64,000 nt of DNA from an uncultured Gammaproteobacteria bacterium (GTDB taxonomy: Bacteria; Patescibacteriota; Microgenomatia; UBA8517): the NCBI GenBank assembly GCA_964524515.1, contig CAZGEA010000004.1, positions 32,015 to 96,014 of the forward strand. Reading direction: 5' to 3'. Every line of letters begins with the position of its first letter. Within the stretch, counting starts at the first letter, position 1. Position numbers and translations under genes: made by a program. Under the pieces are notes generated by a model. It worked only from the letters and a program-made list of their open reading frames with translations, did not search any database and had not been told where the DNA came from. This document shows positions 32,731 through 64,000 of this stretch, piece by piece.

Positions 32731-32770
32731 AAAATCAACCGGGAAAAAGAAGCGATATTTTGATCTTTTT

Positions 32771-33955: not shown

Positions 33956-33979
33956 ATTATATGTTGTATAATTTAAAAG

Positions 33980-44354: not shown

Positions 44355-44368
44355 AAAAATTTTGTTGT

Positions 44369-45364: not shown

Positions 45365-46183
45365 TTATTTATTTTTATTTAATTCTTTAAGTGCTAGTGC
45401 TGCCTCATCTTTATTGGGAGTTTTACCATGCCATTCATATTTTCCTTCCATGAAACTTACTCCCTTGCCTGGAATAGTGTGGGCTAAAATCACTGTTGGT
45501 TTTTCATAAACTGCTCTCGCGTGTGCGACACTATCGATTATTTCTTGAATGTTATGACCATCAATATGCAAAACATGCCAATTAAAAGCTTTGTATTTAT
45601 CAGAGAGTGGCTCCAATGGCATTATGTTTTCTGTGAAGCCATCAATTTGAATGTTATTGCGATCAACAAAAACCGTGAGGTTTGATAATTTATTTTTACC
45701 TGCAAACATTACGGCCTCCCAATGATTTCCTTCTTGATGTTCGCCATCAGAGCAAATACAAAATACTCTAAACCTTTTTTGATCCATGCGTGCGGCATAC
45801 GCAAGACCTGAAGCTTGAGCCAAACCGGAGCCCAAAGGACCTGAGGTGGTCTCTACTCCTGGTAATTTAGTTCGTTCGGGGTGGCCTTGAAGGCGACTAC
45901 CAAATTTTCTAAGTGTTTTTAATTCATTGACTGGAAAATAGCCGCTTTCTGCCATTGCGGCATATCTGACTGGTGCAATGTGGCCATTTGAAAGAATTAA
46001 GCGATCGCGTTCAGCCCAATCAGGATTGTCAGGGTCGTGATTTAAAACATGAAAATATAAACTTGCAAAAATATCAGACATTCCCAGAGGACCTGCTGAG
46101 TGACCAGATCCTGCTTCTAAGAGCATTTTAATAATATCTTTTCTTATTGTATTTGCCTTTTGGGCAATTTCCTCAACTGTCAT
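45365..46183 (-). CDS. transketolase, N-terminal (TPP-binding) subunit
   Basis: GSGHSAGPLG, SNGH and CSDGEHQEGNHWE motifs, 272 aa. Directly abuts the C-terminal subunit gene. Confidence 0.85.
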   Translation of the reverse strand: MTVEEIAQKANTIRKDIIKMLLEAGSGHSAGPLGMSDIFASLYFHVLNHDPDNPDWAERDRLILSNGHIAPVRYAAMAESGYFPVNELKTLRKFGSRLQGHPERTKLPGVETTSGPLGSGLAQASGLAYAARMDQKRFRVFCICSDGEHQEGNHWEAVMFAGKNKLSNLTVFVDRNNIQIDGFTENIMPLEPLSDKYKAFNWHVLHIDGHNIQEIIDSVAHARAVYEKPTVILAHTIPGKGVSFMEGKYEWHGKTPNKDEAALALKELNKNK

Positions 46184-46800
46184 TTTTTAATTTCCTTGGC
46201 CAATAGATCTTTTAGTCTTTTGTCAAAGCGTTCAATTGTTGGCAAGATATCTTCTTTTTTTGTAACAATTTCAAAAACTGCTAACTCTTCACGGCTTATG
46301 TTTAGATTTTTTCTGATTGCATCAATAATTTCTAACCAAAATTCACCATATAAAATAAATGGTTTGTGATGGCCGTAGTAAAGCTTTGCCAAAACCCACA
46401 CAGTCCCAAATTCCGATATTGTTCCTGTTCCACCTTTGAAGATTATAAACATGTCTCCGTGCTCAATTAATTTGAACATTCTTTCTATGTAATTTTTGGT
46501 TTTAATTTCTTTGTCAGTTAGATTTCTTAGGTATTTTCCTTCAAAACCTGTGGCTTCGTGAGGATAGAAAGTGACAGAGAGAGTTTCACCTTTGGCTTCT
46601 TCTGCACCTTGAGTTGATGCATACATGACACCTGGACCACCACCGTTTACGATTGTGTAGCCTTTTTCGGCAACTATTTTTGCAACTTCAAAGGCGTCAC
46701 GATAAACTTTGTCTGTATCTGGCAAATCAGCATCACCAAAGAAGGCGATGTTTTTTATAATTGATCTACCGATGAAAGCATCTTCTTGTGTTTTATTCAT
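46180..46800 (-). CDS. LOG-family (TIGR00730) nucleotide phosphoribohydrolase-like protein
   Basis: GGGPGVM and KGGTGTISE motifs. Confidence 0.7.
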   Translation of the reverse strand: MNKTQEDAFIGRSIIKNIAFFGDADLPDTDKVYRDAFEVAKIVAEKGYTIVNGGGPGVMYASTQGAEEAKGETLSVTFYPHEATGFEGKYLRNLTDKEIKTKNYIERMFKLIEHGDMFIIFKGGTGTISEFGTVWVLAKLYYGHHKPFILYGEFWLEIIDAIRKNLNISREELAVFEIVTKKEDILPTIERFDKRLKDLLAKEIKK

Positions 46801-47411
46801 ATTATTTTTTCAAACCAACTTTTGCCTTGTACCACTTCATCGACACCAAAGGACTCCAACTCTGATAGTATTTCAGTTTTGACTCCCCCGTCAATGCATA
46901 TTTTAAAATTGCTTTTAAATAATCTTCTAATATCTTGGAGTTTTTCGATTTTTTGATAAACAGATTTATCAAATGATTGCCCTCCAAAGCCTGCTGGAAC
47001 ACTCATTAAAAGAATGACACTGCATGCTCTTATTGCTTTTGAATCTAAATCGTTTATTGGTGTTTTTAAATCAACTGCTAAACCTGCATCAATATTTCCA
47101 GTTAAAATTTCTTGAATGAATTCGTTTTGATTGTACATGAATTCTATTTGGCCAATTATTCTATCTGAATTTGCAATTTGCATTGATTTTTTAATCCATG
47201 CCTGCGGATTTTTAACCATCAAATGAATATCAAGAGAAAGCGATAGATCTTCAAGCGACGCCAAAACTTCAGGATAAATAGTTTTATTTTTTGCAAAAAC
47301 TCCGTCAACAATATCGATTTGGACTCTTTTTATTTGGTTTGATTGAGCAATATTTATTAATTTTATTGCTTCTTCTGTATTGTTTGTTAAAACAGAGGGA
47401 ATAATTTGCAT
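46797..47411 (-). CDS. rpe: ribulose-phosphate 3-epimerase-like protein
   Basis: TIM-barrel pattern IIPSVL..QIDIVDGVFA..IHLM..GFGGQ..IDGG, 204 aa. Divergent from canonical Rpe. Confidence 0.6.
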   Translation of the reverse strand: MQIIPSVLTNNTEEAIKLINIAQSNQIKRVQIDIVDGVFAKNKTIYPEVLASLEDLSLSLDIHLMVKNPQAWIKKSMQIANSDRIIGQIEFMYNQNEFIQEILTGNIDAGLAVDLKTPINDLDSKAIRACSVILLMSVPAGFGGQSFDKSVYQKIEKLQDIRRLFKSNFKICIDGGVKTEILSELESFGVDEVVQGKSWFEKII

Positions 47412-48517
47412 TATTTTGCTGGGCTAAATGTGAGCGTTAACGGATCAGTTGGTGATTCTGGAGTTCCTAGTGTACGAGCCACTCGGATTACTTGTTCAAC
47501 AAGTCGATTAGCATAACCCCATTCGTTATCATACCAGGCAAATACTTTTACCAAATTTCCTGCCACAACTTGTGTCAATTCAAGGTCAACAATCGCTGAT
47601 TCGCTTCGACCAATAATGTCAGATGAAACCAAACCGCTTTGTGATACTGCTAAAATTCCTTTATATAGTGGGTTTGTTGATGCTCTAACAAATGCATCAT
47701 TAACATCTGAGACTGTGACATCTTTTTTAAGAAGCATAGTGAAGTCTGTTATGGAACCGGTTGCAGTGGGTACCCGCAGTGAGGCACCATCAAATAAACC
47801 TTTCAATTCTGGAATTGTTTCAGTTACAGCAATTGCTGCTCCGGTTGAAGTTGGGATAATGTTTTCAGCTGCTGCCCTGGCGCGGCGCAAGTCACGATGT
47901 GAATTATCTTGTAAGTTTTGGTCATCTGTGTAGCTATGGATTGTTGTCATCATGGCTTTTTCAATACCAAACGTTGCGTGCAAAACGGCCGCCACTGGAG
48001 CGACACAATTTGTTGTACATGATGCATTAGAAATGACTACTCCCTGCCCATCGTAGTCGTTTACACCCAACACATATGTGCCTACATTTCCACCTTTTGA
48101 AGGAGCTGAGATTATTACTCTTTTTGCTCCACCTGCTGCGTGTTTTTTGGCGTCTTCATCTGTTACAAATTTACCTGTTGCCTCAATTACTACATCTACT
48201 CCATATTTTCCCCATGGAATTTTAGAAGGTTCCCTTTGTGCTGAAATAATTGATTCTCTTCCATCACAAATTATTTTTCCGATAACTGGATCTTCGTCTG
48301 TGGCTTCAGCTGCTTTTTTTGTTATTTCAGGATGAACATCGAGTGCGAATTTTCTATACATTGTGTCGTAGTTGACCAGATGTGCCCAACCATCAACTTC
48401 CATTGAGCCTGATGTATTAATTAATGCAATTTCCAATTCATCTTTGTGTTTGAGGTTTGCAATTCTATATGCAATTCTTCCAATTCGACCAAATCCATTT
48501 ATTCCTATTTTTACCAT
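47411..48517 (-). CDS. gap: glyceraldehyde-3-phosphate dehydrogenase (with insertion and C-terminal tail)
   Basis: MVKIGINGFGRIGR and SNASCTTNC active site, plus WYDNEWGY. 368 aa, longer than typical. Confidence 0.9.
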   Translation of the reverse strand: MVKIGINGFGRIGRIAYRIANLKHKDELEIALINTSGSMEVDGWAHLVNYDTMYRKFALDVHPEITKKAAEATDEDPVIGKIICDGRESIISAQREPSKIPWGKYGVDVVIEATGKFVTDEDAKKHAAGGAKRVIISAPSKGGNVGTYVLGVNDYDGQGVVISNASCTTNCVAPVAAVLHATFGIEKAMMTTIHSYTDDQNLQDNSHRDLRRARAAAENIIPTSTGAAIAVTETIPELKGLFDGASLRVPTATGSITDFTMLLKKDVTVSDVNDAFVRASTNPLYKGILAVSQSGLVSSDIIGRSESAIVDLELTQVVAGNLVKVFAWYDNEWGYANRLVEQVIRVARTLGTPESPTDPLTLTFSPAK

Positions 48518-48524
48518 TTCAATT

Positions 48525-49601
48525 TCAGTCTAACAGTGCTTTTATTCCAGGTAAAGACCCCTCGCCTAGAAAATCTAGCATTGCTCCGCCCCCTACTGAA
48601 ACCCAACTAAATTTATCTGCTAAACCAAACTTATTAATTGCATTAACAGTGTCTCCTCCACCTGCAACTTTGAATGCGTCAGTGTTTCCCGCCACTGCTT
48701 CAAGAACTCTTTGGGTTCCCAAATGGTGACCTATTTCTTCAAAAACTCCAAGTGGACCAGCTACAACTATTGTTTTTGCTGACTCTATAATTGGAACAAA
48801 TTTTTCAATTGATTTAATAGTAATGTCTTTTCCTTCAACTGTAAGGTGTGCAATTTCTAACTTTTCATCTGTTGTATCTTCTAAGAATTTGGGGAGAGCG
48901 CCACCTACTAATATTTTATCTGCAAACTGTTTGAAACTTTGAAGATAAGTTAATTTATCTTCTTTGGCACCACTTACTATTGCAATTGTTGGATGATTTG
49001 GGTTGTTTCTGACTTTTTCAAGATTTTCTACTTCTTGCGCAAATCTTAAACCTACAGCATGAGGTAATAATTTGGGAAGACCAACGATTGATGCATGTTG
49101 TCGGTGACTTGTAGCAAATGATTCATTAACATAAAAATTAATGTTATTACCGATTAAAAGCTTAACGAAGTTTTCGTCGTTTTTTTCTTCTCCTTCGAAA
49201 AATCTTAAGTTTTCAAATAAAATAATTCTTGATTCTTCTTTTGGATCTGAATTATCAGAATTTTTTTCAAAATTTGTGTTTAGGTTTTCTTTGAAAAGAA
49301 CTTTCTCACCTAGCAGATTTGAAAACAAATGCCACAAATTAAGTGTTGAAACGTATTTATCATCGATTTTTCCGATGTGACCCACAATTACCAATAGTTG
49401 AGGATTTTGATTTAATATGTGTTTAAGGGTTGGGAGGCAAGCATTGATTCGCGAGTCATCTTCTACTTCAAATTTTTCAGTGTTATTTTCATCAATTGTT
49501 TTTTTAAAAGGAACATCTAAATCTATTCTTACAATTACATTTTTACCTTTTAAATCGAAATCAGAGAGTTTTGGAAGATTCATATTGGGATATTTTTTCA
49601 A
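48525..49601 (-). CDS. pgk: phosphoglycerate kinase (short form)
   Basis: VRIDLDVP, LENLRF, FATSHRQHAS and a GGGDT C-terminal motif. The start may be the internal MNLPKL. Confidence 0.85.
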   Translation of the reverse strand: MKKYPNMNLPKLSDFDLKGKNVIVRIDLDVPFKKTIDENNTEKFEVEDDSRINACLPTLKHILNQNPQLLVIVGHIGKIDDKYVSTLNLWHLFSNLLGEKVLFKENLNTNFEKNSDNSDPKEESRIILFENLRFFEGEEKNDENFVKLLIGNNINFYVNESFATSHRQHASIVGLPKLLPHAVGLRFAQEVENLEKVRNNPNHPTIAIVSGAKEDKLTYLQSFKQFADKILVGGALPKFLEDTTDEKLEIAHLTVEGKDITIKSIEKFVPIIESAKTIVVAGPLGVFEEIGHHLGTQRVLEAVAGNTDAFKVAGGGDTVNAINKFGLADKFSWVSVGGGAMLDFLGEGSLPGIKALLD

Positions 49602-50016
49602 CTCGCCTTACATGTCTTTCTTCATTTGAAAATTGTGTATTAATAAATGTTTTTACAATGTTGATTGCACCCTCAAGATCCACAAAATCAGCACCAAGAG
49701 ATAATATATTTGCGTTGTTGTGTTCACGAGCAAGGGTTGCCATATCGGTATTAATGCAAAGTGCTGCACGAACTCCTTTTACTTTATTTGCAGCAATTTG
49801 TTCACCGTTACCTGATTTACCAATGACTACACCAAATGAATCACTATTACCCACTGTTGATTCAGCTGCTTTGATTATAAATTCCACATAATCGTCTTCT
49901 GGATCAAAAATTGAATTTCCACAATCTATTACCTCATGCTTTTCCCCTACCAAATAACCTTTTAGTTCTTCTTTAAGTTTAAAACCGACGTGATCAGTTG
50001 CTATAAATATTTTCAT
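49561..50016 (-). CDS. rpiB: ribose-5-phosphate isomerase B
   Basis: MKIFIATDHVGFKLKEELK, GKSGNGEQIAANK and RHVRRV motifs, 151 aa. Confidence 0.85.
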   Translation of the reverse strand: MKIFIATDHVGFKLKEELKGYLVGEKHEVIDCGNSIFDPEDDYVEFIIKAAESTVGNSDSFGVVIGKSGNGEQIAANKVKGVRAALCINTDMATLAREHNNANILSLGADFVDLEGAINIVKTFINTQFSNEERHVRRVEKISQYESSKTL

Positions 50017-50669
50017 TTGAATCCTTCTATTAAATTTTCTAAAGCTGTTTTTGGATCATCTGCTTTTACTATATTTGTGGCAACTGCAATCCCAATGGCT
50101 CCTAACTGAAGAGATTTTTGAATATCAGTTTTGTCATGAATCCCTGCGCCAACAATTAATGGAATACCTGCTTTTTTTGCAATTTCAAAAACTTCAGAAA
50201 TCACTTCTGGTTTTGCAGTTGCAACTGAGATATCAGTGCGACCAATGAATTCTGGAGGTTCATAAGAAACATAATCAGGTTTTAATTCGATTAATTTTTT
50301 AAATTCTTCAATATCGCTTGCAAAAATTAAAGTTTTTAAACCTACTTCTTTTGCTTTTTGGTGAGCTATTTTTAAATCATCAACATTTGCAAACTTGTGT
50401 TCCGAGTGATTCAGAAGTGTTCCAACGGCCCCTGATTCTTTAACTGAACTTGCTGAAACCCAGCCAGTTTTTGGACCTTCATCAATTGGATCAATATGTT
50501 GTGCCCAAATTTCAAACTTATTTAGTTTTGCTAAATTTTGAATATCAATAGTTTGAACTGCAGCGACAACTTTTATTTCTTTTAGATTTGCATTTGAGAG
50601 ATTGATTAAAAGATTTTGTGCATTAACGCCTACTGATTGACTATATGCTTTGAAATTAAGAACAATCAT
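50013..50669 (-). CDS. tpiA: triosephosphate isomerase, short archaeal type
   Basis: MIVLNFKAY, LLNHSEH, YEPPEFIG and VGAGI motifs, 218 aa. Confidence 0.8.
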   Translation of the reverse strand: MIVLNFKAYSQSVGVNAQNLLINLSNANLKEIKVVAAVQTIDIQNLAKLNKFEIWAQHIDPIDEGPKTGWVSASSVKESGAVGTLLNHSEHKFANVDDLKIAHQKAKEVGLKTLIFASDIEEFKKLIELKPDYVSYEPPEFIGRTDISVATAKPEVISEVFEIAKKAGIPLIVGAGIHDKTDIQKSLQLGAIGIAVATNIVKADDPKTALENLIEGFK

Positions 50670-50920
50670 GAATGAATATTAAAAATCGCGTCTAATTCGC
50701 GACGGTTGAAGCCAATTATTTTTGAAATGTTTCCATCATCTTTTTCGATCCATGTAAATGGAACTCCTAAATAGCCATCTGAGATTTTCATCATTTCTTC
50801 TTTGGCTCCTGCTTCATCATCCACAAAGCTTTCTGTAAATTCTATTTTTAAATCCAAAAGGTAATTTTTGAGCATTTGGCAGTATGGGCATGTTCGAGTT
50901 GAGAAAATTTTAACTTTCAT
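50666..50920 (-). CDS. glutaredoxin/NrdH-like small redox protein
   Basis: CPYC active site at the N-terminus, 84 aa. Confidence 0.75.
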   Translation of the reverse strand: MKVKIFSTRTCPYCQMLKNYLLDLKIEFTESFVDDEAGAKEEMMKISDGYLGVPFTWIEKDDGNISKIIGFNRRELDAIFNIHS

Positions 50921-50923
50921 AAT

Positions 50924-51646
50924 TTAAGTAATCAATAAACCAACTACTTTAAACCAGATTGGACTATCTACTGTCAAGACCCTACCGGTTGATGCTGAGA
51001 GATTAGCAGTTACTTCCACTGGAATTTTTGTAATTTTTAAATCAATTATTCTTGTTCCTTTGACTTCATAATGCAATTCACCAAATTCGTTTTCAGTAAG
51101 TAGCATCGGTGAATTTGGATCGATTTCATCGAGTAAACGAGCATTGATTGCCAATTCAGCTGCATCTTGAGGAAGCAATACAATAAACCTTAAGCCTGTT
51201 GGGGCTTTAACAGAGATTAAAGCAGTACCTGGATCAATTTCAACTGGGTATTCGGTTGAAGCAGAATTCTCTCCTTGGATTAGTATGAATTTTCCATCAC
51301 TTACTTTTATTGAGAGGTTTTTTGATTCACCTCGGGATTCAACTTCAACAACGTCACCTTCAAAATTGGTAATATCTGCTTTGGCTTTGTTGTTTCCCGA
51401 ATCTTGAATTACCTGGAAACTATTTCCTTCTTTGTATACTGAAATTTTTCCATTTAAATTTGAATCTAAATTGGCTATTTTTTTAATTTTTATTTCTCGA
51501 TCTGATTCAGCACCTAAGACATTCCATGAAGTTTTGCCGTTTGATGAAATTGTGACTATTGCGTCTGCCAAAACAATATTGGGAGTGACTAAAAAAATTA
51601 ATCCAAAGACAGCAAAATAAAATGATTTTTTCATTTGATCATTCAT
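50924..51646 (-). CDS. secreted hypothetical protein (paralog family with the 55479..56072 product)
   Basis: Signal peptide. The C-terminal YEVKGTRIIDLKITKIPVEVTANLSASTGRV resembles YVITGYQDKRFLGVFPIKLTRVVTYSANERTV of the other protein. Confidence 0.5.
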   Translation of the reverse strand: MNDQMKKSFYFAVFGLIFLVTPNIVLADAIVTISSNGKTSWNVLGAESDREIKIKKIANLDSNLNGKISVYKEGNSFQVIQDSGNNKAKADITNFEGDVVEVESRGESKNLSIKVSDGKFILIQGENSASTEYPVEIDPGTALISVKAPTGLRFIVLLPQDAAELAINARLLDEIDPNSPMLLTENEFGELHYEVKGTRIIDLKITKIPVEVTANLSASTGRVLTVDSPIWFKVVGLLIT

Positions 51647-51653
51647 GATATCA

Positions 51654-52142
51654 CTAATAGCTTGCTTCCAGGAGGACTTTGTCTAATTTTTTGATTTGAA
51701 TTTTTGAATATGAAGTTAAGTCTTCTTGTTTTGAAACTTCAAGCATATAACCGCCTTTTCCAGTTTCAAGATTTCCAATGTTTATTTGGCTACCATCTGG
51801 TTTAGATAGTACTAATAAATATTTTTCATTTTTTTGCAAATCTGGAAGATCTGCTAACACCAACAAATCAAATTTGTTGTTTGAATATTTTCTAGAAACC
51901 ACACCTGAGTAATTTTCCCCATCCCCTGAAATGTCTTTCAATTCTTTTTTATCTGAATCTACTGGAAGAGTAATTCTAAAAGAATCTTCAATTCCTTTGA
52001 CAGAACCAACTGGTGAACTTGTTACAAATGGAGTTGTTTCTGGGTTTTGATTGCTATTTCTATTTTTTATAAACCAAAAGAAACCACCGATTACAATTAC
52101 AACCATTAATCCAATTAGTGCGTCTGAAAATTTAGGCTTCAT
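51654..52142 (-). CDS. membrane-anchored hypothetical protein
   Basis: 162 aa with an N-terminal TM helix and a beta-rich extracytoplasmic part. Confidence 0.45.
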   Translation of the reverse strand: MKPKFSDALIGLMVVIVIGGFFWFIKNRNSNQNPETTPFVTSSPVGSVKGIEDSFRITLPVDSDKKELKDISGDGENYSGVVSRKYSNNKFDLLVLADLPDLQKNEKYLLVLSKPDGSQINIGNLETGKGGYMLEVSKQEDLTSYSKIQIKKLDKVLLEASY

Positions 52143-52190
52143 TTAACTTAAAATAAAATAACACTAGCCTATAGAATTGGCAAGAGGGTT

Positions 52191-52313
52191 TCATTCACAA
52201 CAAGGATCTTTGAAGCCGCAGTTGGTGCAAATTGCGTCCTTACTCCCTGCCACTACTCCAATTTTGGATCCACACACAGGACAATCTTGTTTTTGCGTTT
52301 CAACTTTTGACAT
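52191..52313 (-). CDS. 40-aa zinc-ribbon micro-protein
   Basis: The minus-strand reading is MSKVETQKQDCPVCGSKIGVVAGSKDAICTNCGFKDPCCE, with two CxxC knuckles. It falls below the ORF-track length cut-off. Confidence 0.45.
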   Translation of the reverse strand: MSKVETQKQDCPVCGSKIGVVAGSKDAICTNCGFKDPCCE

Positions 52314-52317
52314 GTTG

Positions 52318-52323
52318 TATAAT
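52318..52323 (+). promoter_or_regulatory. perfect TATAAT -10 box placed for a leaderless transcript of the 52331 ORF
   Basis: TATAAT ends 7 nt before the ATG at 52331 and no Shine-Dalgarno sequence lies between them. Confidence 0.3.
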
Positions 52324-52330
52324 TTATATA

Positions 52331-52521
52331 TGAAGTTTGCAACTGTTGTCCAGATAATGGCATTTATACATCACTTGGTTTGGAGTGTGCTTGGACTTTT
52401 GGTTTTATTTTTTGTTTATTACTTTTTTACCAGTGGTTATAAAGCTTTTATAAACCCAGATCAGCAATTTTTTGCAAGCCCAACACCTGTGGTTACTTTG
52501 ACTCCAAAACCCGTAAAATAG
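52331..52521 (+). CDS. small single-TM membrane protein
   Basis: MKFATVVQIMAFIHHLVWSVLGLLVLFFVYYFF... This is the C-terminal part of the 52177..52521 track ORF. The upstream part of that ORF is antisense to the zinc-ribbon ORF. Confidence 0.45.
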
Positions 52522-52528
52522 GCCATAC

Positions 52529-52557
52529 TTGACAATTGGCACTTTAGGGTGTATAGT
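52529..52557 (+). promoter_or_regulatory. near-consensus sigma70 promoter
   Basis: TTGACA (52529-52534), an exact 17-nt spacer, then TATAGT (52552-52557). Confidence 0.65.
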
Positions 52558-52563
52558 GCTAGT

Positions 52564-53013
52564 ATAAGTTAATTAATAGTTACCGCACGTATATCGGAAA
52601 CTACACTAATTTTGAAGGCGAGGAAAAGGATAAGCCTATTTACATCATTTAACTTTAAGCTAGCCATAGAAAAGAAGGCCGAGGCTGATATTAACAATTT
52701 GTGCCTACTTGGCCAAAACCTGCTTTGACCTTCTTTTCTGAGGCTATGCCTCAGTGATCGAGCTTTACGCTCGTTAACAATTAAAGCGAGTTATACAGAC
52801 ACAAGCCTAATTTGTGCCTGACAACAAGCTCTCGTGGGGTTCACAGGGAATCAGAAATCCTTGTTTCTAAAGACCAATCTTTTAAATTAATATCTTTATA
52901 GAAACAATGAAAACTTAAAATTTTTTAATTTTCTGTTTCCTGTGAGCCTCATGAGTATCTTAAAAAGCTTGTCTGTTGGTGCACATCAGCGCAAGCGCTC
53001 ATAGTCAGAGGCC
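52564..53013 (+). ncRNA. long structured 5' leader or independent ncRNA (unclassified)
   Basis: About 450 nt with no ORF between the promoter and the GGAGG RBS at 53014. It contains a roughly 18-bp stem (52661-52680 / 52727-52746) and a 167-nt rod hairpin (52816-52982). G-U wobble pairs are compatible only with a plus-strand RNA. Confidence 0.55.
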
Positions 53014-53022
53014 GGAGGATGT

Positions 53023-55077
53023 ATGTTTAAATCATCATCACGCTCCCTGTTTAGGGTAGCAATCGTGGCAATCATTTTCTTGATTGTCTCCGCTTATTCG
53101 TACTCGCCTACCACCGCTGGTGGCGAAACCCCAACCCCTGTGGTTGGAAATGATGGCGGAAATAGCAACGGACCTGCTCCTTCTGAGCAAACCCCGGTGC
53201 CAGCCGATACGACAGTTCCTCCCGCGCCGACAGAAGTCGCCGCGACCGCTGTTCCAGCCACACCCGTGACTGTGAATCCAACTAACACTCCTGTGATAGT
53301 TGACATCCAACCTTCAGCTTCACCCGAAGTTGTGGGAAACCAGCCCGCTCCCTCACCTGAGGCGATTTTGGCACCGAGTAAGACGCCTGGAATTTCGCAA
53401 ATCCAGAGTCCGCCCTCGATTGAGCCAGAACCAAGCTGCGATGGGTGGAACATAAAGATCGTAAATCCCGGGTATTATCTCCAGTTTCGCTGGGAATACC
53501 ACAAAGATTCCGATCCTATTAAGGGAGACTGGAAGCCAGAAAAAATCAATACCAAAGGTGGAATTACTTTCCATTTCCAATGGTATGGTGGAGACTGGGG
53601 TCAGGCAGACTATACATGGGATATTACCCGTGGACCGGAATGCCCGCCGTTTGTCGTAGCGACAAATACTTCTGTGCCGCCAACGGAAACTAATGTTCCG
53701 CCAAGTGCGACACCTAGTGCGACGTTCACAAACACGCCGCAACCGAGCAATACGCCGACTGTGACGCCTAGCAACACACCGTTGCCTAGTGCGACACCGA
53801 CGTACACGGAGACGAACACGAGCACGCCTGTGCCACCTACGTTTACCGCGACGTATACATCAACAGCCACGGCGACTCACACCGAGACGCCAACAGTTGC
53901 GCCGACGTATACATTCACGCCTTCACAGACACCGATTCCACAACAAACTGTTGTGAATATTTCGGTTACTGCGACGGTAGCACCAGTCGTTATTAAAACT
54001 TCTGGTGATGAGTGCAAAGAACCGGCCATCAATGGCTTTATGGACTTTGGGGGTTTCAATTTCCAAGTTCAGGTTTTGAGCGAAGGTCGTTCTAAGCCAA
54101 AGTCGATGGCGACCAAAAATCTCTTGGCTTCAGATGCTTCGCTTTCACCAAATGGTGAATGGGTTGCCTTTGTAGCAGCTGATCCAAACGGACAGTTTAC
54201 AGAGATTCGTTTGGCGAGGTTTGTCGATCTGGCAAAAAGCTGGTCTGTCTACAAGAGCTACAGTAATGTAGTCTCTGCACCAGCAGTAAACGACAATGGA
54301 GACATCTTGTTTGTCGTTGACTTCAATGACCAAGATCGTCGTTCCGAGGTATTGCTTGTTCGCAAGAATGGCAAGCCAACGGAAGTAGTCAGCCCAGGAG
54401 ATAGCCCATTTTGGATCAATAATACAACTGCAGGGTACATTAACCCGAGCAGCCTGATCTATGAATGGGAAATCGATCAAGAGATTCACAGTGAATCTGG
54501 CGCGTATAGTTTGTATGGTTGGGTTTTCATGAATGAAGTGACAGTTGCCCGAAATGGTGACTTGTTAGCTTTCGTGGGCAGCAAGAATGGTATCAGCCAA
54601 ATTGTTGTCTTTAATCGGATTACCCAGTCCCAAATCTGGCAATCGCCAGTCGGAGCGAATCAACCAGTCATGAGCCGCGATGGTCGTTTTATCGTTTTTG
54701 TTCACAATGGGCAAATCAAAGCTCATCAGATGAACAAGGCCGAAGACCAAATTACGGTCATTACGAATGTTGATAAGTCTGTTGCGAACCCAGTGCTTTT
54801 GTGCACCAATCAAGTGATCTTCACTTTGAACGGTAACACAATTGTCTCGGTTTCGTATCAGCCCAGCATGAAGTCAGTTTCTGAGTCTGGTTTGACAGTT
54901 CTCAAGAGTCCAAGCAACAATTTGCTCGCGACATATTTTGGGAGTCACACCCAGACCCGTCCAGAGATTAAAACAGGAGATTCGAATTTTGTCCGCATGG
55001 CAAACAATCTTCGGTTGAATCTGGAAAAGCCTGCTACAAGTATTGCTTTGTTAGCACAAAGCTTTACCAGCCGATAA
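53023..55077 (+). CDS. GC-rich secreted/membrane-anchored protein with PT-rich linkers, a small Cys-bounded domain and a TolB/PD40-like beta-propeller region
   Basis: 684 aa with an N-terminal TM anchor. Linkers read TPxPT and TNTPTVTPSNTPLPSATPTYTET. C-terminal repeats resemble PD40 blades (SPNGEWVAFVA, NDNGDILFVV, ARNGDLLAFVG, SRDGRFIVFV). GGAGG lies 4 nt upstream of the ATG. Confidence 0.7.
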   Translation: MFKSSSRSLFRVAIVAIIFLIVSAYSYSPTTAGGETPTPVVGNDGGNSNGPAPSEQTPVPADTTVPPAPTEVAATAVPATPVTVNPTNTPVIVDIQPSASPEVVGNQPAPSPEAILAPSKTPGISQIQSPPSIEPEPSCDGWNIKIVNPGYYLQFRWEYHKDSDPIKGDWKPEKINTKGGITFHFQWYGGDWGQADYTWDITRGPECPPFVVATNTSVPPTETNVPPSATPSATFTNTPQPSNTPTVTPSNTPLPSATPTYTETNTSTPVPPTFTATYTSTATATHTETPTVAPTYTFTPSQTPIPQQTVVNISVTATVAPVVIKTSGDECKEPAINGFMDFGGFNFQVQVLSEGRSKPKSMATKNLLASDASLSPNGEWVAFVAADPNGQFTEIRLARFVDLAKSWSVYKSYSNVVSAPAVNDNGDILFVVDFNDQDRRSEVLLVRKNGKPTEVVSPGDSPFWINNTTAGYINPSSLIYEWEIDQEIHSESGAYSLYGWVFMNEVTVARNGDLLAFVGSKNGISQIVVFNRITQSQIWQSPVGANQPVMSRDGRFIVFVHNGQIKAHQMNKAEDQITVITNVDKSVANPVLLCTNQVIFTLNGNTIVSVSYQPSMKSVSESGLTVLKSPSNNLLATYFGSHTQTRPEIKTGDSNFVRMANNLRLNLEKPATSIALLAQSFTSR

Positions 55078-55105
55078 CTCGCTTTAGTTAAGCACATTCG
55101 CACAA

Positions 55106-55230
55106 GGCTGATAGATAGTTTTCTCGATAATAGAGAATATCAGCCCACAGCAGGGAGAGATTTTTTTAAGATGAGATGCAAGCACGCATCAAGGGTACAC
55201 CCATCATTTTAATTAATCATCTCCCCGCTG
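55106..55230 (+). ncRNA. structured 3'-UTR module: hairpin plus four-helix junction abutting the ribozyme
   Basis: Hairpin: GGCUGAUA/UAUCAGCC with inner UUCUC/GAGAA (55106-55145). Junction P1: CAGC-GGG-GAGAU/AUCUC-CCC-GCUG (55148-55161 / 55219-55230). P2: AAGAUGA/UCAUUUU. P3: GAUGC/GCAUC. P4: GGG-UACA-CCC. Confidence 0.5.
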
Positions 55231-55234
55231 CACA

Positions 55235-55294
55235 GTAAGTCTGCAGATATTAAACTCTCTGCACTGATGAGCCCCAAGAGAGGGCGAAACTTAC
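55235..55294 (+). ncRNA. type III hammerhead self-cleaving ribozyme
   Basis: GUAAGU-C(cut)-UGCAGA[UAUUAAACUC]UCUGCA-CUGAUGA-GCCC[CAAGAGA]GGGC-GAAA-CUUAC. All invariant core nucleotides are present: C3 U4 G5 A6 N7 G8 A9, G12 A13 A14, the A15.1-U16.1 pair, C17 and G10.1-C11.1. Helices I (6 bp) and II (4 bp) are closed by loops; helix III (6 bp) is open. Confidence 0.85.
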
Positions 55295-55382
55295 ATTAAA
55301 ACTAGATAATATGTTTCCTTTAGCTTTTTGCGCAATTTGAAAAAAATTGCTTAAAGAGGTAGAGGGTAACCTTTATCGACCG

Positions 55383-55428
55383 ATATACACCCTGCACCCA
55401 CCAACTTCTATTGGGTGCAGGGGTGTGT
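55383..55428 (+). other. long GC-rich hairpin (possible 3'-end/stability element; no adjacent U-tract)
   Basis: AUAUAC(A)CCCUGCACCCA pairs with UGGGUGCAGGGGUGUGU around an 11-nt loop. Two U-G wobbles (55384/55427 and 55386/55425) fit only a plus-strand RNA. Confidence 0.5.
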
Positions 55429-55441
55429 ACCGATAACAGGC

Positions 55442-55470
55442 TTGAATTTTTGAGTTCAAGATGTTAGTGT
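55442..55470 (+). promoter_or_regulatory. possible promoter for the 55479 gene (near-leaderless)
   Basis: TTGAAT, a 17-nt spacer, then TAGTGT. The -10 box ends 8 nt before the ATG and no SD is visible. Confidence 0.3.
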
Positions 55471-55478
55471 AAGACCAC

Positions 55479-56072
55479 ATGAACAAACGAGTTAAATTAA
55501 CTCTTACACTTTTGACTGCAGCTTCGATCTTCCCCATTTCTTATTCTTTATCTCACGCTGAATCATCTTCAATAAAACTAAACAACACAGTAACTAATGG
55601 GACTATAAAAACTGAAATCCAAACATCAGGAAACGCTAAAGCCACGGTTTCAACAACAGTAAACGGAAAAAATACAACTGTGACATCTGCTCAAGGATCA
55701 ACAACCGTTAAAACCACAAATGAAAAAGGAGAAACTACGACCAAAACACTCGAAGATGGATCTGAAGTAAAAATAGAAAATGGATCAGTTAAAGTGATGA
55801 CTGAAAATGGAGAGAAAACTGTTTCTGTAACAACTGAGCAAGCAGTGGAGGCGATTGTTAACAATGGAACAATATCACATGAATCAAACATTAAAATTGA
55901 AACCAGTGGAGATAATGTTAATTATGTAATTACAGGATACCAGGACAAGAGATTTTTGGGTGTGTTTCCTATTAAATTGACCCGTGTTGTGACTTACTCT
56001 GCAAATGAGAGAACAGTTTCTTCAGTTCATAGGTCTTTTTTGACCAAAGTACTAGATCGTCTTTCTTTTTAA
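55479..56072 (+). CDS. secreted Thr-rich hypothetical protein (paralog family with the 50924..51646 product)
   Basis: Signal peptide MNKRVKLTLTLLTAASIFPISYSLSHA, host-like AT-rich codons, and a shared C-terminal motif. Confidence 0.55.
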   Translation: MNKRVKLTLTLLTAASIFPISYSLSHAESSSIKLNNTVTNGTIKTEIQTSGNAKATVSTTVNGKNTTVTSAQGSTTVKTTNEKGETTTKTLEDGSEVKIENGSVKVMTENGEKTVSVTTEQAVEAIVNNGTISHESNIKIETSGDNVNYVITGYQDKRFLGVFPIKLTRVVTYSANERTVSSVHRSFLTKVLDRLSF

Positions 56073-57604
56073 AAGAGACTTTGTTGAGATTTTTTTAGTT
56101 TAAATTTAAACCTTTTTTCTTTAATTTTTGCAGTTTTTGGATCTTCTTTTTGCGGAGTTACATTTTCTACTAACATCGCGAGGTCTGATTTTTGACTAGA
56201 AATTATAATTAAATTATTTTTTGCTCGTGTCACTGCCACATACATTAATCTTTTTTCTTCATCAAAATTATTTTTATTTTTAATTTCTGAATCCAAAATT
56301 ATTACATTTTTGAACTCCAATCCTTTTGATGAATGAATTGATGACAAAGTTACAAACTCTAGATTTTCATCGAAGTATTCTTTATTTTTTAGTTCCTCAA
56401 TGTAATTTAAGAAATCAGAAATTTTTAGATATTTTTGATCAATCAGATTTATTCTTTGTAATAGTTCATCTGATAAATCAATATTATTTTCTTTTATCAC
56501 TTCAAATATTACTTGGTTTTTATTTTCATTTTCTTTTAAAATTTGTATTAGAGTTTCAAATTCTTTTGATTGCCAAATTGAATCCCCTATTTTTTGGTAT
56601 GGAATACCAGATTCTGTTAACTTTTCAGAAATATGTTTTGCCAAATGATGATTTCTATATAAAACCGCGAAATCTTTAAAACTTGAATTTTCCTCACTAT
56701 GAAAATTACTTGATGACATTAAATCAATCCCTCCAACTTTTGAAATTATGAAGTCTACTATAAATTGCGATTGGGATTTGTTATCAAGAGATAATATATT
56801 TTGAATAATACTTTGAGATTTGTTATGTGCTACAAAATTTGCTGCAACTGGAAATAATTCTTTGGAGATATTTATTATTTCTTTTGTGTTTCTGTAATTT
56901 ATATTTAGTGTTATTGTTTTTACTTTTGGAAAATCTTTTTTGATAGTCTCAAAAATATTAGAATCTGAACCTCGAAATGAATAGATCGATTGCAGTGGAT
57001 CGCCAACTACGACTAGGTTTGTTTTAGTACTTTTTAATTTTTTAATAATTTCATATTGAATTATGTTTGTGTCTTGAAACTCATCAATCAAAATATAATC
57101 AAAATCCAAATCGATATTTGTACCTAAAAAATAAAGTAATAAATCATCGAAATCAATTTTACCGCTATCTGATAATAATTTATTATATTTATCGATGAGT
57201 AAATCTTGCTTTTTTGATAGTTTGCTTTTAAAGAGACTTATATAATTAGAGATATTTCTTTTTGATTTTTTGAATTCTTTTGAGAGAATTGACAGGGTTT
57301 CATTTCTTTCAAAATTTGTAATTATTGTTAAATTTTTATTTATGGATTGGAGATAATCAAAAGCCAGTGAGTGAAATGTTTCTGTTATAACAGATTTATT
57401 TTTGATTCTTTCTTTTAATTCATTTGCCGCTCTCTTTGTAAAAGTTAAAGCTAAAATTTTTGAAGGTTTAATGCTTTTATCTTTAATTAAGTAATTAATT
57501 TTTTCTGACAATACTCTTGTTTTTCCAGTTCCCGGGCCAGCAACAATTATGAGTACGTTTGAATCATCTTTAATCGCTTTTTTTTGATTTTCATTTAGCT
57601 GCAT
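56069..57604 (-). CDS. UvrD/PcrA-family SF1 DNA helicase (short, 511 aa)
   Basis: AGPGTGKT Walker A, LIDEFQDTN, VGDPLQSIYSFRG, and a C-terminal VTRAKNNL. Confidence 0.8.
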   Translation of the reverse strand: MQLNENQKKAIKDDSNVLIIVAGPGTGKTRVLSEKINYLIKDKSIKPSKILALTFTKRAANELKERIKNKSVITETFHSLAFDYLQSINKNLTIITNFERNETLSILSKEFKKSKRNISNYISLFKSKLSKKQDLLIDKYNKLLSDSGKIDFDDLLLYFLGTNIDLDFDYILIDEFQDTNIIQYEIIKKLKSTKTNLVVVGDPLQSIYSFRGSDSNIFETIKKDFPKVKTITLNINYRNTKEIINISKELFPVAANFVAHNKSQSIIQNILSLDNKSQSQFIVDFIISKVGGIDLMSSSNFHSEENSSFKDFAVLYRNHHLAKHISEKLTESGIPYQKIGDSIWQSKEFETLIQILKENENKNQVIFEVIKENNIDLSDELLQRINLIDQKYLKISDFLNYIEELKNKEYFDENLEFVTLSSIHSSKGLEFKNVIILDSEIKNKNNFDEEKRLMYVAVTRAKNNLIIISSQKSDLAMLVENVTPQKEDPKTAKIKEKRFKFKLKKSQQSLF

Positions 57605-58903
57605 TTACAATCCTAAACCCAACTGTGAATCTTCTTTTGATTCCAATTCACCAGCTTTAAAAACCTTAACTATTCCGTACACACCATCATAGCCTGGATC
57701 GATTACTATATCTTTTCTTCTTACTTTATCGATCGCATGGGATAACATTTCAAAGCCTGCATCTTTAATTTCTTTGATTGTTCTATTTCTAAAAATCGAG
57801 AAATCACTTCCGAGTGTTGAATATATTTTTTCATACTCTTCAACAACTGATTTTGCACCAATACTTTTAATATTTTTTATTTCTGCAATCATTTCAATAA
57901 TGGGAACAATACTGTGAACTTCTTTGTGTTTTTTGGGAATGAAGTCTTCTGGCCTATCTGCTAGATCATCGACTCTGTGCATGACTCCAACAACTAAAGG
58001 AGTGTGACAAACTGGACAGATTCCATTTAGTTTATTCGTTTCACTTGGAAGCAATTTAATATTGCATTTTCTGTGTCCGTCCAAGTGGTACATTCCCTCT
58101 TCTGGGAAGAATTCAAAAGTACCAATAAAGCGTTTGTCATTTGTTTTTATTGCTCCAATAATTTCTTTATATGATAAATCGCAATTAATTATATTTGCTT
58201 CACGAGCTAGTTTTGGAAGAGAGTGAGCATCTGATCCTGAAATAATAGTAATTTTGTCTAATTGAGATAATCTCCAATTCATAAATGGATCTGATGATAA
58301 ACCTGTCTCAATTGCGTAAATATGCGGGGACAAATCACCAAAACAATCTGTTATTGTGTCAAATCCTGATTTTGAGCCAAACATTGCAAACCAGGGAGTC
58401 CAAATGTGGGCTGGAATAAACAGTGAATCTGGATCTGAATTTATAGTTATTTTTAATAAGTCATAGCTGTCCATTCCAATAATTGGACGACCATCTGCTT
58501 TTAGATTAGCTCCCCTTTTTGTAAGTTCTGTATTGATATTTTTTGCAACTTTTAATGATGGAGTGATTACTAAATTATGAAGCCGTCTTCCTTTACCGTT
58601 TCTTGTATACATATTACTTATTTCAACTGTTGGAATAAACCTTACAATATTATCTTTTACAGAATTGGGTAGAAATTTATCAACTTCTTTTGCTAAATCT
58701 TTTTTTAGTGAATATAAACCACCATCTGATTCTTCTAGTCCATTTTCTAACTCTTCAAACCATTTTGGGTGAGTAAAATCCCCAGTTCCAATTACATTAA
58801 TTCCTTTTATCTTTGCCCATTTGTAGATTTCAGGAAGTGTTAATTTACTGCTTGTGGCACGAGCGAAACGTGAATGGATGTGGAGATCAACTATTAGTTC
58901 CAT
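57605..58903 (-). CDS. endonuclease Q-like PHP-domain nuclease
   Basis: N-terminal DLHIHSRFARATS..GTGDFTHPKW PHP metal site and an internal zinc knuckle CPVCHTPL. At 432 aa, both the length and the N-terminus resemble archaeal EndoQ. Confidence 0.7.
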   Translation of the reverse strand: MELIVDLHIHSRFARATSSKLTLPEIYKWAKIKGINVIGTGDFTHPKWFEELENGLEESDGGLYSLKKDLAKEVDKFLPNSVKDNIVRFIPTVEISNMYTRNGKGRRLHNLVITPSLKVAKNINTELTKRGANLKADGRPIIGMDSYDLLKITINSDPDSLFIPAHIWTPWFAMFGSKSGFDTITDCFGDLSPHIYAIETGLSSDPFMNWRLSQLDKITIISGSDAHSLPKLAREANIINCDLSYKEIIGAIKTNDKRFIGTFEFFPEEGMYHLDGHRKCNIKLLPSETNKLNGICPVCHTPLVVGVMHRVDDLADRPEDFIPKKHKEVHSIVPIIEMIAEIKNIKSIGAKSVVEEYEKIYSTLGSDFSIFRNRTIKEIKDAGFEMLSHAIDKVRRKDIVIDPGYDGVYGIVKVFKAGELESKEDSQLGLGL

Positions 58904-60390: not shown

Positions 60391-60415
60391 TATTTGTAGT
60401 ATACAATTAGTAACA

Positions 60416-62110: not shown

Positions 62111-62119
62111 TTTAAAAAA

Positions 62120-63766
<1,647 letters not shown>

Positions 63767-63855
63767 TTATATATTTAATTTATTTTTTACTATAATTTCT
63801 TTTAAAAATCTAATTCTTCGAGACTGCGTGGCCAGAATTATATTTTTAAAAGAAA

Positions 63856-64000
63856 CTAATTTACTATGGCCAAAATATCGTCGAATTTTACAAAAAGATA
63901 TTCTTTGCCGTCTAATTTAACTTCGTTTCCACCCCATTTTTTGTAGATTACTTCATCTCCTACTTTAACTGGAGATTTTTTGGTTTTGCCATTTTCCAAA
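63856..64000 (-). CDS. groS: co-chaperonin GroES, C-terminal part (runs off right edge)
   Basis: The minus-strand reading is ...LENGKTKKSPVKVGDEVIYKKWGGNEVKLDGKEYLFVKFDDILAIVN, ending in a stop at 63856-63858. Confidence 0.85.
   Translation of the reverse strand, partial: LENGKTKKSPVKVGDEVIYKKWGGNEVKLDGKEYLFVKFDDILAIVN

Follow-up and report, generated by a model that had tools for sequence, protein, structure and literature searches.

The locus described here raises the question of what is transcribed from a consensus-like promoter that is followed, over about 460 nt, by no credible gene. The original prediction had offered two options, a very long regulatory leader of the 684-aa protein gene downstream or a separate non-coding RNA. 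The question was addressed in a 64,000-nt stretch of DNA (hereafter the window, to which all coordinates refer), in strain haplotypes of the same locus and in related loci (L107-L112).

The sigma-70-type promoter block is located at 52526-52567 (+ strand), where TTGACA (52529-52534), a 17-nt spacer and TATAGT (52552-52557) together give 11 of 12 consensus matches, in full agreement with the predicted promoter. The additional claim that this is the best sigma70-like promoter in the window held for its score, which is the top one, but not for its being the sole best, because one 11/12 site with a 16-nt spacer ties with it. By our own composition-based estimate, about 4-5 matches at 11/12 are expected by chance per 128 kb of such AT-rich sequence, and hence in the window, so that the match alone is not significant. 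The promoter is credible because the same promoter with the same spacer precedes the homologous genes in two related loci, L108 and L112. Local alignment of the block scored 72 against L112 and 51 against L108, compared with shuffle means of about 26 ± 3.5, and the conservation between the window leader and L108/L112 covers the promoter and the first ~45 transcribed nucleotides. The transcription start is predicted near 52561-52564. A search for a second promoter-like site (at least 9/12) between the promoter and the ATG found none, and no + strand terminator-like site was found in 51500-54000, hence none between promoter and ATG.

The interval 52564-53022 (+ strand) was delimited as an ORF-free, highly structured 5′ leader RNA on the basis of its fold stability, the lack of a credible ORF and the lack of an Rfam match. 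The longest ORFs in 52560-53022 have 38 aa on the + strand and 42 aa on the - strand, both with a TTG start, in line with the claim that the interval is free of ORFs. Neither of them is coding, since both cross 52613-52631 (+ strand), a hypervariable and apparently unstructured spacer in which strain haplotypes carry frameshifting 1-2-nt indels; in haplotypes X4, X5 and X9, many substitutions and 1-2-nt indels in this spacer disrupt both short ORFs. Small-protein and type I toxin ORFs in the leader were rejected, being frameshifted in strains. The GGAGG at 53014-53018 and the ATG at 53023 are present where they had been placed.

Folding of the leader gave an MFE of -141 kcal/mol, compared with -103 ± 5 kcal/mol for shuffled sequences (z -7.4, + strand), thus confirming both the long helices seen originally and a structure better than that of shuffled controls. 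The reverse strand also folds better than its shuffles (z -5.0); the 12 G·U pairs in the predicted leader fold and the better z-score of the + strand argue for function as a + strand RNA. In a GC-corrected scan of all 64 kb in 460-nt windows, the strongest outliers were the leader locus and 54856-55545. The short repeats were found exactly as described, TTAACAATT at 52691 and 52774 and AATTTGTGCCT at 52696 and 52809; they adjoin in the first copy and are 26 nt apart in the second, and the 11-mer has no other mismatch-free copies in the window.

At gathering thresholds, the Rfam scan of the window returned three tRNAs only. The leader has no match at this score, which is consistent with the earlier failure to assign it to a family by eye, and at E ≤ 10 the region 52300-53200 gave only sub-threshold, miRNA/snoRNA-like hairpin noise. 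A tmRNA search with ARAGORN found none. Identity as tmRNA, RNase P, SRP or 6S RNA was rejected because no model matched, and identity as a T-box because the T-box sequence is absent (by eye). A TIGR-Tas array, a retron and a DGR template, as well as an IscB/TnpB omega RNA and an IS110 bridge RNA, were rejected because repeats and a partner protein are missing and the downstream protein looks secreted. A hammerhead inside the leader was rejected by eye, as the CUGANGA...GAAA core is lacking and CUCAUGAG at 52945 has no G5; a search of the leader for other known self-cleaving ribozymes found none.

Four leader haplotypes, 94-98% identical, were compared, and the leader was single-copy in every strain contig. 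Strain differences were confined to loops and one unstructured stretch, with the core helices unchanged: among these four haplotypes, 16 of 276 paired columns were variable against 35 of 188 unpaired columns (Fisher p = 3e-5). Compensatory double changes were sought within the window's own lineage and none was found, the strains being too close.

The individual sub-structures follow this pattern. Near the 5′ end of the leader, Hairpin A (52577-52603, + strand; UAGUU.CCG / CGG.AACUA) is part of the MFE fold of all four haplotypes, and its sole strain change (52598 A>G) lies in a bulge. Hairpin C (52661-52746, + strand) consists of a 12-bp and a 6-bp helix around the first UUAACAAUUUGUGCC (52691-52705), with a small apical hairpin, and is invariant in all haplotypes except for 52708 C>T in the apical loop; its similarity to the L108 leader (GAUA..UUAACAAUU..GCC..UCUUCUGAGG) is weak, with a score of 34 versus 26.5 ± 3.1. 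An alternative hairpin recognized in the sequence and in a sub-fold, CUGAGGC-UAU-GCCUCAG (52738-52754, + strand), excludes the base of Hairpin C and vice versa. It carries a loop change in strain X9 (52747 U>A), and hairpins in L108 (CUGAG...CUCAG) and L112 (CCGAAGCU...AGCUUUGG) may, in our judgement, be its equivalents in place. Hairpin D (52759-52791, + strand; CGAGC-UUUAC-GCUCG in a sub-fold) has the alternative form GCUCG-UUAACAAUUAAAG-CGAGU, in which the second UUAACAAUU (52774-52782) is displayed in the loop; its four strain substitutions (at 52765, 52766 and twice at 52768) all fall in the 5-nt loop, leaving the stems unchanged.

Hairpin E (52813-52985, + strand) is a long irregular hairpin with an AU-rich apical region and with the second AAUUUGUGCCU (52809-52819) at its base. 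Its core is a 20-bp helix of 52831-52850 with 52936-52955, including four G·U pairs, and this core and the upper stems are invariant in all haplotypes. The loops and bulges are variable (52884, 52890, 52908, 52921 and 52957-52963), and conservation does not extend to the lower stem (52813-52824 with 52966-52985), which is disrupted in some strains, as is Hairpin B. The 3′ end of the leader (52995-53022, + strand), invariant across haplotypes, provides in the MFE fold of all four the 3′ strand of a predicted long-range helix with 52748-52763, and its GAUGU is paired with ACAUC at 52642-52646; within the long-range helix, 52758 U>C converts a U·G pair with 53004 to C-G. In each of the four MFE folds, the Shine-Dalgarno sequence GGAGG (53014-53018) is left unpaired.

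Comparison with the relatives revealed a layout common to the window, L108 and L112, namely a promoter, a long structured ORF-free stretch, a Shine-Dalgarno site and the homologous gene. The ORF-free leaders of L108 and L112 have 536 and 412 nt, respectively, with z-scores of -11.1 and -5.0, and the proteins encoded downstream are 28-34% identical to the 684-aa protein of the window. Between L108 and L112, the proteins are only ~35% identical, while the leaders share identical runs of up to 26 nt and a 155-nt 3′ core that is far more conserved than the protein. By eye, this core contains GNRA-capped hairpins, repeated CGAG motifs and alternative CCUGUG/CACAGG/CUCCUG pairings. The expectation of homologs with compensatory changes was thus borne out between the L108 and L112 leaders (20 of 82 pairs), but not within the window lineage. 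A covariance model of the 3′ core gave no match in the window, L107 or L109-L111, and since the core is absent from the window, conclusions based on it are not directly transferable to the window leader. Beyond the promoter and the first ~45 nt, the window leader is weakly homologous to those of L108 and L112, the second-best segment scoring ~2.4 sd above shuffles. The short upstream stubs of L109, L110 and L111 showed no significant similarity to the leader, and a leader homologue is absent from loci L006-L008, which are syntenic through TIM. Wherever the element occurs, a member of the same gene family follows it immediately and in the same orientation; in L107, the N-terminal half of the gene has been lost, and the leader has been lost too.

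The gene that follows the leader (53023-55077, + strand), with homologues in the relatives, encodes a fast-evolving protein of 684 aa, in which a membrane anchor or signal sequence at the N-terminus and Pro/Thr-rich linkers are combined with a C-terminal domain that is all-beta. From these features we infer that it may be abundant or surface-exposed. Pfam and NCBIfam gave no family above cut-off, PDB sequence matches were limited to the low-complexity linkers, and the AlphaFold model of the C-terminal domain has a pLDDT of 34, too low to be of use. A search of 1.8 billion representatives yielded only ~24 distant relatives; a homologue search with the C-terminal domain returned nothing, and one with the adjacent 162-aa protein returned only itself. 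The gene has a GC content of 0.45-0.52, compared with ~0.34 for the genome. Over its N-terminal ~240 nt, strains with 98% identity upstream agree in only ~65% of positions (by eye), and the break falls exactly at the ATG. An upstream 63-aa ORF and the 684-aa gene have a PTPVV-coding 19-mer in common (repeat D1), and no integrase or phage genes are in view at the locus. The neighbouring TIM protein is 56% identical to its nearest relative outside the same species, which places the organism near Woesebacteria; a scan of genome contigs with the TIM protein found only Aenigmatarchaeota, at ~35% identity. The host is regarded as an uncultured, Woesebacteria-like (CPR/Microgenomates) bacterium; its source run is Logan SRR12762304, and SRR27787828 contains a related strain.

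A structured non-coding stretch with a hammerhead downstream of the gene had been missed in the original prediction. This second structured ORF-free stretch (55078-55478, + strand) lies between the 684-aa gene and a gene for a 197-aa secreted protein, has an MFE of -143 kcal/mol (z -10.3 on the + strand and -6.6 on the - strand) and has a homologue in the corresponding intergenic region of L107 (nhmmer E = 6.6e-11). It contains a type III hammerhead ribozyme (55234-55295, + strand), which scored 48.2 bits against RF00008, 0.3 below the gathering score of 48.5 (E = 3e-10). The core is complete (CUGAUGAG...CGAAAC, with the cleavage triplet GUC/U), so that the CUGANGA ... GAAA core, the NUH triplet, the three helices and the open helix III of this type are all present, and self-cleavage is predicted after C55241. 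RF00008 homologues also follow the homologous gene in L107 (41.2 bits), L112 (35.5 bits) and L108 (28.7 bits), and across the four loci 6 of 16 pairs are changed on both sides, with stems I and II 100% paired.

Of the two options of the original prediction, a long leader and a separate non-coding RNA, the leader is the better fit, as neither a terminator-like site nor a second promoter-like site precedes the ATG and the layout recurs in two relatives. A hint of its expression is the 135-nt leader fragment from a probable RNA library that is described below. We hold, with somewhat better than even confidence, that the interval acts in cis as a stabilising and/or regulatory 5′ leader of a strongly expressed surface-protein mRNA with a hammerhead-cut 3′ end, and it most likely represents a new family of mRNA leader with a putative function. 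In the proposed mechanism, transcription from the sigma-70-type promoter would run without a terminator through ~460 nt of RNA into the 684-aa gene, so that leader and gene would be co-transcribed. The leader RNA would fold into hairpins A, C, D and E and a long-range closing helix, with GGAGG exposed before the ATG, and the folded leader would act in cis on the amount of protein, probably by affecting mRNA stability or translation. Like the slpA 5′ UTR, it would shield the message against decay from its 5′ end and keep the ribosome-binding site accessible, and its alternative pairings and repeated UUAACAAUU and AAUUUGUGCCU motifs would leave room for a bound tuning factor. The conserved type III hammerhead, if active as its core suggests, would cut the transcript ~165 nt past the stop codon, providing a defined 3′ end for the message and a 5′-OH end on the RNA of the next gene. 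With its ~460 nt (410-540 in relatives), the window leader is, to our knowledge, several times the length of the stabilising leaders described so far, and this length suggests more than simple protection.

Such a leader might instead be a sensor, riboswitch-like or protein-/sRNA-binding, in which a factor switches alternative helices and alters translation or processing. Mutually exclusive pairings are indeed available: there are three copies of GAGGC and two of GCCUC, two pairing schemes are open to CGAGC, GCUCG and CGAGU, the 16-nt UUAACAAUUUGUGCCU is repeated, once split, and UAACAAUU recurs in L108. A binding pocket or a site for a protein would also be expected to show the stronger conservation, relative to the encoded protein, that is seen in the L108/L112 core. 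The window lacks this core, however, and the downstream gene gives no metabolite hint. No known riboswitch or leader family was found even at E ≤ 10, a terminator-type expression platform is absent, and the Shine-Dalgarno sequence is unpaired in every predicted fold, including those of all four haplotypes. The riboswitch subtype put forward originally is therefore not sustained, and a sensor of any of these kinds appears unlikely.

Somewhat less likely still is a stand-alone or leader-derived, processed and stable non-coding RNA that acts in trans, the gene being merely co-transcribed or neighbouring. A 135-nt insert flanked by both adapters (52744-52878, + strand) was the sole stretch of the leader locus to be recovered, in the probable RNA library X21, whose type is a guess ("RNA?") and whose adapter orientation denotes + strand RNA only if the library is dUTP-stranded. 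Nothing else in X21 from 14001-34000 or 44001-64000 matched beyond ~50 nt, so that the only RNA-library fragment from these 40 kb lies inside the leader and outside coding sequence; RNA runs searched for words from 19 kb of flanks contained none of them. The size and degree of structure resemble those of large bacterial non-coding RNAs, and the promoter is stronger and better conserved than expected for an ordinary gene. The 20-bp near-perfect helix of Hairpin E, long enough for RNase III, could be a substrate of this enzyme and its cleavage could release the upstream RNA. On the other hand, no terminator or defined 3′ end precedes the Shine-Dalgarno site, and the constant position and orientation of the element upstream of one gene family, together with its loss in L107 along with the N-terminal half of the gene, tie it to that gene. 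Nor was a second copy detected by nhmmer and blastn in the rest of the window. Scans of viral contigs with 15- and 17-mers of the leader gave chance-level matches that did not extend, and neither the L108/L112 core nor the promoter pattern gave a hit there; blastn with the leader against phage and plasmid collections gave no match, and in one metagenome pattern scan with both UUAACAAUU motifs the hits were confined to a coding region in an AT-rich, unrelated genome.

A bolder reading, which we consider improbable, is that the leader and its L108/L112 relatives form a new large (400-540 nt) RNA class with an activity of its own (ligand or protein binding, or self-processing), which would bracket the message together with the 3′ hammerhead and yield, in CPR bacteria, an mRNA that is processed in a special way and perhaps circularised or protected at its ends; the sharp strain-to-strain switch at the ATG would then be the boundary between a conserved RNA "socket" and the exchangeable surface-protein cassette behind it. 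Finally, a DNA-level feature (mobile-element remnant, recombination site or decayed gene), or a palindromic, AT-rich region that is due to chance and functionless as RNA, is very improbable: although the reverse strand also folds better than shuffles, the interval borders a compositionally foreign gene (GC 0.52 versus 0.34) whose N-terminus is swapped between strains at the ATG, and the shared 19-mer hints at a past rearrangement, the 12 G·U pairs, the clearly better z-score of the + strand, the single copy in every strain contig, the variation favouring loops, the lack of similarity to phage or plasmid records and the retention of promoter and long structured leader in relatives all stand against it.

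CPR/Patescibacteria have small genomes, and many are thought to live attached to other cells, which makes surface proteins central to their biology; as far as we know and could find, little has been published on their control of gene expression and their non-coding RNAs. The locus presents a putative surface-protein gene family in an unusually RNA-rich frame, made up of a conserved promoter, a 400-540-nt folded leader and a 3′ hammerhead. If the interval is a cis-acting leader, as we favour, and stabilises or gates its message, it would offer a concrete, testable case of post-transcriptional control in these bacteria, and hammerhead ribozymes would acquire a defined role in the shaping of an mRNA that is cellular and not of phage origin. 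The L108/L112 core is in addition a good candidate for a new Rfam family.

Among known systems, riboswitches, T-box and ribosomal-protein leaders resemble the window leader in lying upstream of an ORF and in having alternative pairings, and the L108/L112 core is likewise more conserved than the protein; they differ in that here there is no family match, no terminator/anti-terminator, no sequestered Shine-Dalgarno sequence in the predictions and no suggested ligand. OLE, GOLLD, ROOL and raiA RNAs belong to the same size class, are likewise predicted to be strongly structured, have a narrow phylogenetic range and were also discovered from intergenic sequence, whereas the window RNA has no Rfam match, is tied to one gene family and is without a 3′ end of its own. 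The closest parallels for the leader are found in mRNAs of envelope proteins. In E. coli, the highly expressed envelope-protein mRNA of ompA has a stabilising 5′ leader. The S-layer mRNA slpA of Lactobacillaceae combines a strong promoter with a structured 5′ UTR that stabilises the transcript and exposes the ribosome-binding site (PMC10221546). Compared with both, the window leader has several long helices and repeated motifs and shows no sequence relationship, but it shares the strong promoter, the long, stably folded and ORF-free 5′ UTR and the accessible ribosome-binding site in the predicted fold, and its downstream gene, to judge from its sequence, may likewise encode a secreted or anchored envelope protein. 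For the 3′ element, there is a proposal that hammerheads flanking genes in bacterial and prophage transcripts divide long transcripts into mRNAs of gene length (Perreault et al., 2011, PMC3088659). Unlike those gene-flanking hammerheads (RF00008/CL00010), the present one belongs to a chromosomal, putative surface-protein locus of a CPR bacterium and neighbours the leader rather than being part of it; like them, it is a complete type III hammerhead after the gene and on the coding strand, at four loci, which fits the transcript-cutting proposal.

The most fitting reading of the interval at 52564-53022 (+) is a 5' leader of a surface-protein mRNA, one that belongs to an as yet undescribed family of long structured leaders preceding this gene family in a clade of CPR bacteria; the leader family is based on three full-length members and close strains. 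The promoter was as originally described, with a 17-nt spacer separating TTGACA at 52529 from a TATAGT that ends at 52557 (11/12 match). A scan of both strands showed that it is only tied for the best in the window, although the optimal spacer is its alone. From base composition at 34% GC, approximately 4-5 chance matches of 11/12 are expected per 128 kb, and thus the promoter match by itself is no evidence. The absence of a notable ORF was also borne out: between 52560 and the GGAGG at 53014 and ATG at 53023, the longest ORFs have 38 and 42 amino acids and TTG starts. These two ORFs are excluded as coding by frameshifting indels among strains in the hypervariable stretch 52613-52631. Neither a terminator-like site on the + strand from promoter to ATG nor a second promoter-like site (≥9/12) ahead of the ATG was found.

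Folding analysis revealed that the leader (463 nt) reaches -141 kcal/mol compared to -103 ± 5 for dinucleotide shuffles (z -7.4), in agreement with the long helices predicted, while its reverse strand has a z of -5.0. The + strand fold contains 12 G.U pairs, four of which lie in the 20-bp helix at the core of the long hairpin (52831-52850 paired with 52936-52955). Among GC-corrected 460-nt windows over all 64 kb, the top-ranked structure outliers were the leader locus and 54856-55545. The short repeats described originally are exact, with TTAACAATT at 52691 and 52774 and AATTTGTGCCT at 52696 and 52809, adjoining in the first copy and 26 nt apart in the second. The failure of the original prediction to match known RNAs was upheld by Rfam 15, where nothing matched at the gathering score and hits at E ≤ 10 were confined to hairpin-like noise, and ARAGORN detected no tmRNA. 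No other copy was found in the window, and phage and plasmid records, viral contigs and one metagenome pattern scan yielded no match.

Strain haplotypes were recovered from contigs of other sequencing runs (wastewater, sludge, runoff and freshwater), including one full contig (L009), and shared 94-98% identity over the leader. In an alignment (A1) of four full-length haplotypes, variable columns comprised 16 of 276 paired and 35 of 188 unpaired positions (Fisher p 3e-5); the A1 consensus structure derives from the same sequences as this count, and a fold of the reference only gave the same picture. Hairpin C (52661-52746) was invariant, as were the stem of hairpin D (52759-52791) and the core of hairpin E (52813-52985), while repeated changes fell in loops, at 52708, in the 5-nt loop 52764-52768 (four hits), at 52884, 52890, 52908 and 52921, and at 52957-52963. 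The change 52758 U>C converts U.G to C-G with 53004 in a predicted long-range helix. Within this lineage, no double compensatory changes occurred among the haplotypes, and hairpin E did not keep its lower stem. Strain identity drops exactly at the ATG, from about 98% in the leader to about 65%, by eye, in the gene's first ~240 nt. This N-terminal divergence with indels (53023-53260), seen against L009 and contigs of sequencing runs X3, X4, X6 and X13, spans the signal/anchor and the first Pro/Thr-rich segment, and resembles the outcome of diversifying selection or of cassette-like recombination at the N-terminus.

With the C-terminal domain of the 684-aa protein as query, a full HMMER scan revealed about two dozen distant relatives. 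In locus L108 (protein 34% identical), CTTGACAATTAGCACTCATTGTGCTATACTGCTAGTAT stands where the window has CTTGACAATTGGCACTTTAGGGTGTATAGTGCTAGTAT, and then come 536 nt devoid of ORFs (z -11.1), ending at GGAGG and ATG. In L112 (28% identical), CTTGACATTTGGCACTCTGGGGGGTATACTGCCAGCAT is succeeded by AAGTTAAGTATACCGACGCAC, with AAGTTAATTAATAGTTACCGCACG at this place in the window, and a 412-nt ORF-free stretch comes next (z -5.0). Alignment scores with the window were 72 for L112 and 51 for L108, compared to shuffle means of about 26 ± 3.5; the aligned part is the promoter in both, extended in L112 to the first ~45 transcribed nt. The leaders of L108 and L112 are alignable over their whole length, and their proteins are 35% identical in the C-terminal domain only. 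Compensatory changes among homologs, expected if the structure is real, were found between these two leaders (20 of 82 pairs) but not among the window's strains. Their 155-nt 3' core (L108 1319-1470, L112 481-636) includes 26 identical nt, UACGAGCAUCCUCUGUCUCACAGGAG, GNRA tetraloop hairpins (by eye) and CGAG motifs in several copies, and it may adopt alternative pairings. The core has no family match in Rfam and is a candidate for a new RNA motif. Past its 5' end, the window leader showed weak similarity to the L108 and L112 leaders (UUAACAAUU motif and UCUUCUGAGG, ~2.4 sd), and a covariance model of the core found no match in it, indicating that the window leader is a diverged form of this type of element. 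The closest protein relative, in L107 (46%), is encoded by an N-terminally truncated gene (1724-2881) beginning at about window residue 300, without leader or signal sequence and with an unrelated SLT-domain gene directly upstream on the other strand. The upstream stubs of L109 and L111 (~65 nt, to the contig ends) and L110 (211 nt) had no significant similarity to the leader.

The 401 nt after the stop codon (55078-55478, +) are ORF-free and more structured than the leader (z -10.3 on +, -6.6 on -). They contain a type III hammerhead (55234-55295, +) with a complete core (CUGAUGAG, CGAAAC), predicted to cleave between GUC and U after 55241; its RF00008 score of 48.2 bits (E 3e-10) is 0.3 under the gathering score of 48.5. 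Hammerheads also follow the homologous genes in L107 (3029-3083), L112 (2294-2348) and L108 (3456-3507), with 41.2, 35.5 and 28.7 bits, respectively. Aligning all four shows full (100%) pairing in stems I and II, which carry compensatory changes; both partners have changed in 6 of 16 pairs, and the observed covariation score was not attained by any shuffle. L107 keeps the remaining intergenic region (nhmmer E 6.6e-11), including a long hairpin (55381-55434, CGAUAUACACCCUGCACCCA...UGGGUGCAGGGGUGUGUACCGAU) with compensatory changes by eye, and the downstream 197-aa and UvrD genes. The L107 copy has probably been truncated, with loss of promoter, leader and N-terminal half and retention of the hammerhead and downstream synteny. 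The structured stretch 55078-55478 may serve the 197-aa secreted-protein gene as its leader.

The source of the contig is a wastewater metagenome, and neighbouring glycolytic genes place the host near Candidatus Woesebacteria (CPR/Microgenomates). The triose-phosphate isomerase (50013-50669, -) is of the short type (218 aa), and its closest relative beyond its own species is merely 56% identical; matches in the genome-contig scan were Aenigmatarchaeota only (33-36%), while metagenomic Woesebacteria-like proteins reached that 56%. The adjoining small proteins are orphans. A tRNA-Ile with anticodon UAU lies at 25469-25540 (-). The 684-aa gene (53023-55077) encodes a protein with a hydrophobic N-terminus, linkers rich in Pro/Thr and a predicted all-beta C-terminal domain, and no family assignment was found for it. 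Its GC of 0.45-0.52 (53001-55000), compared to ~0.34 for the genome, could stem from foreign origin or from codon usage peculiar to a gene with high expression; Pro/Thr/Ala-rich composition accounts for only part of it. Just upstream of the promoter, a 63-aa membrane-helix ORF (52330-52521, +), annotated as a gene in L009, terminates in ...SPTPVVTLTPKPVK and has a 19-nt PTPVV-coding near-repeat (52476-52494 and 53127-53145) in common with the N-terminal coding portion of the 684-aa gene, giving it the look of a leftover alternative N-terminus. A perfect TATAAT (52318-52323) lies only 6 nt ahead of its ATG, and so its mRNA could be leaderless. A 40-aa ORF (52191-52313, -) encodes a four-cysteine zinc-ribbon whose ~84% identical matches, with unrelated flanks, occur in contigs of several co-occurring organisms, indicating a widespread small gene.

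Regarding expression, a single contig of X21, a run classed as probable RNA by a guess at its type, consists of adapter, 52744-52878 and adapter (insert of 135 nt, 3 mismatches, depth 5). X21 had no match longer than ~50 nt elsewhere in 14001-34000 or 44001-64000, and sampled words from flanks totalling 19 kb were absent from every RNA run scanned. The adapter orientation corresponds to + strand RNA only if the library was dUTP-stranded, and the contig is a hint, not proof, that the leader RNA is abundant or stable.

The original prediction left open a regulatory leader or a separate ncRNA; the leader fits best, given the same layout in L108 and L112, while a separate or processed RNA stays a rival. 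The length, alternative pairings and repeated motifs of the leader may point to a role beyond passive protection, and the unusually well conserved promoter spacer and strongly conserved L108/L112 core suggest the same direction, so that two rivals are live. A leader acting as a sensor is a minority possibility, and a processed stable RNA, favoured by the X21 contig lying inside the leader, is somewhat less probable still. A purely DNA-level or accidental feature is very unlikely. As the 5' leader of a surface-protein mRNA, the interval has its closest functional precedent in the slpA S-layer mRNA, which combines a strong promoter with a structured, stabilising 5' UTR that exposes the RBS (PMC10221546). 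On the 3' side, the message would be bounded by the hammerhead through its predicted cleavage, for which the precedent is found in gene-flanking hammerheads proposed to cut long transcripts into gene-length mRNAs (PMC3088659).
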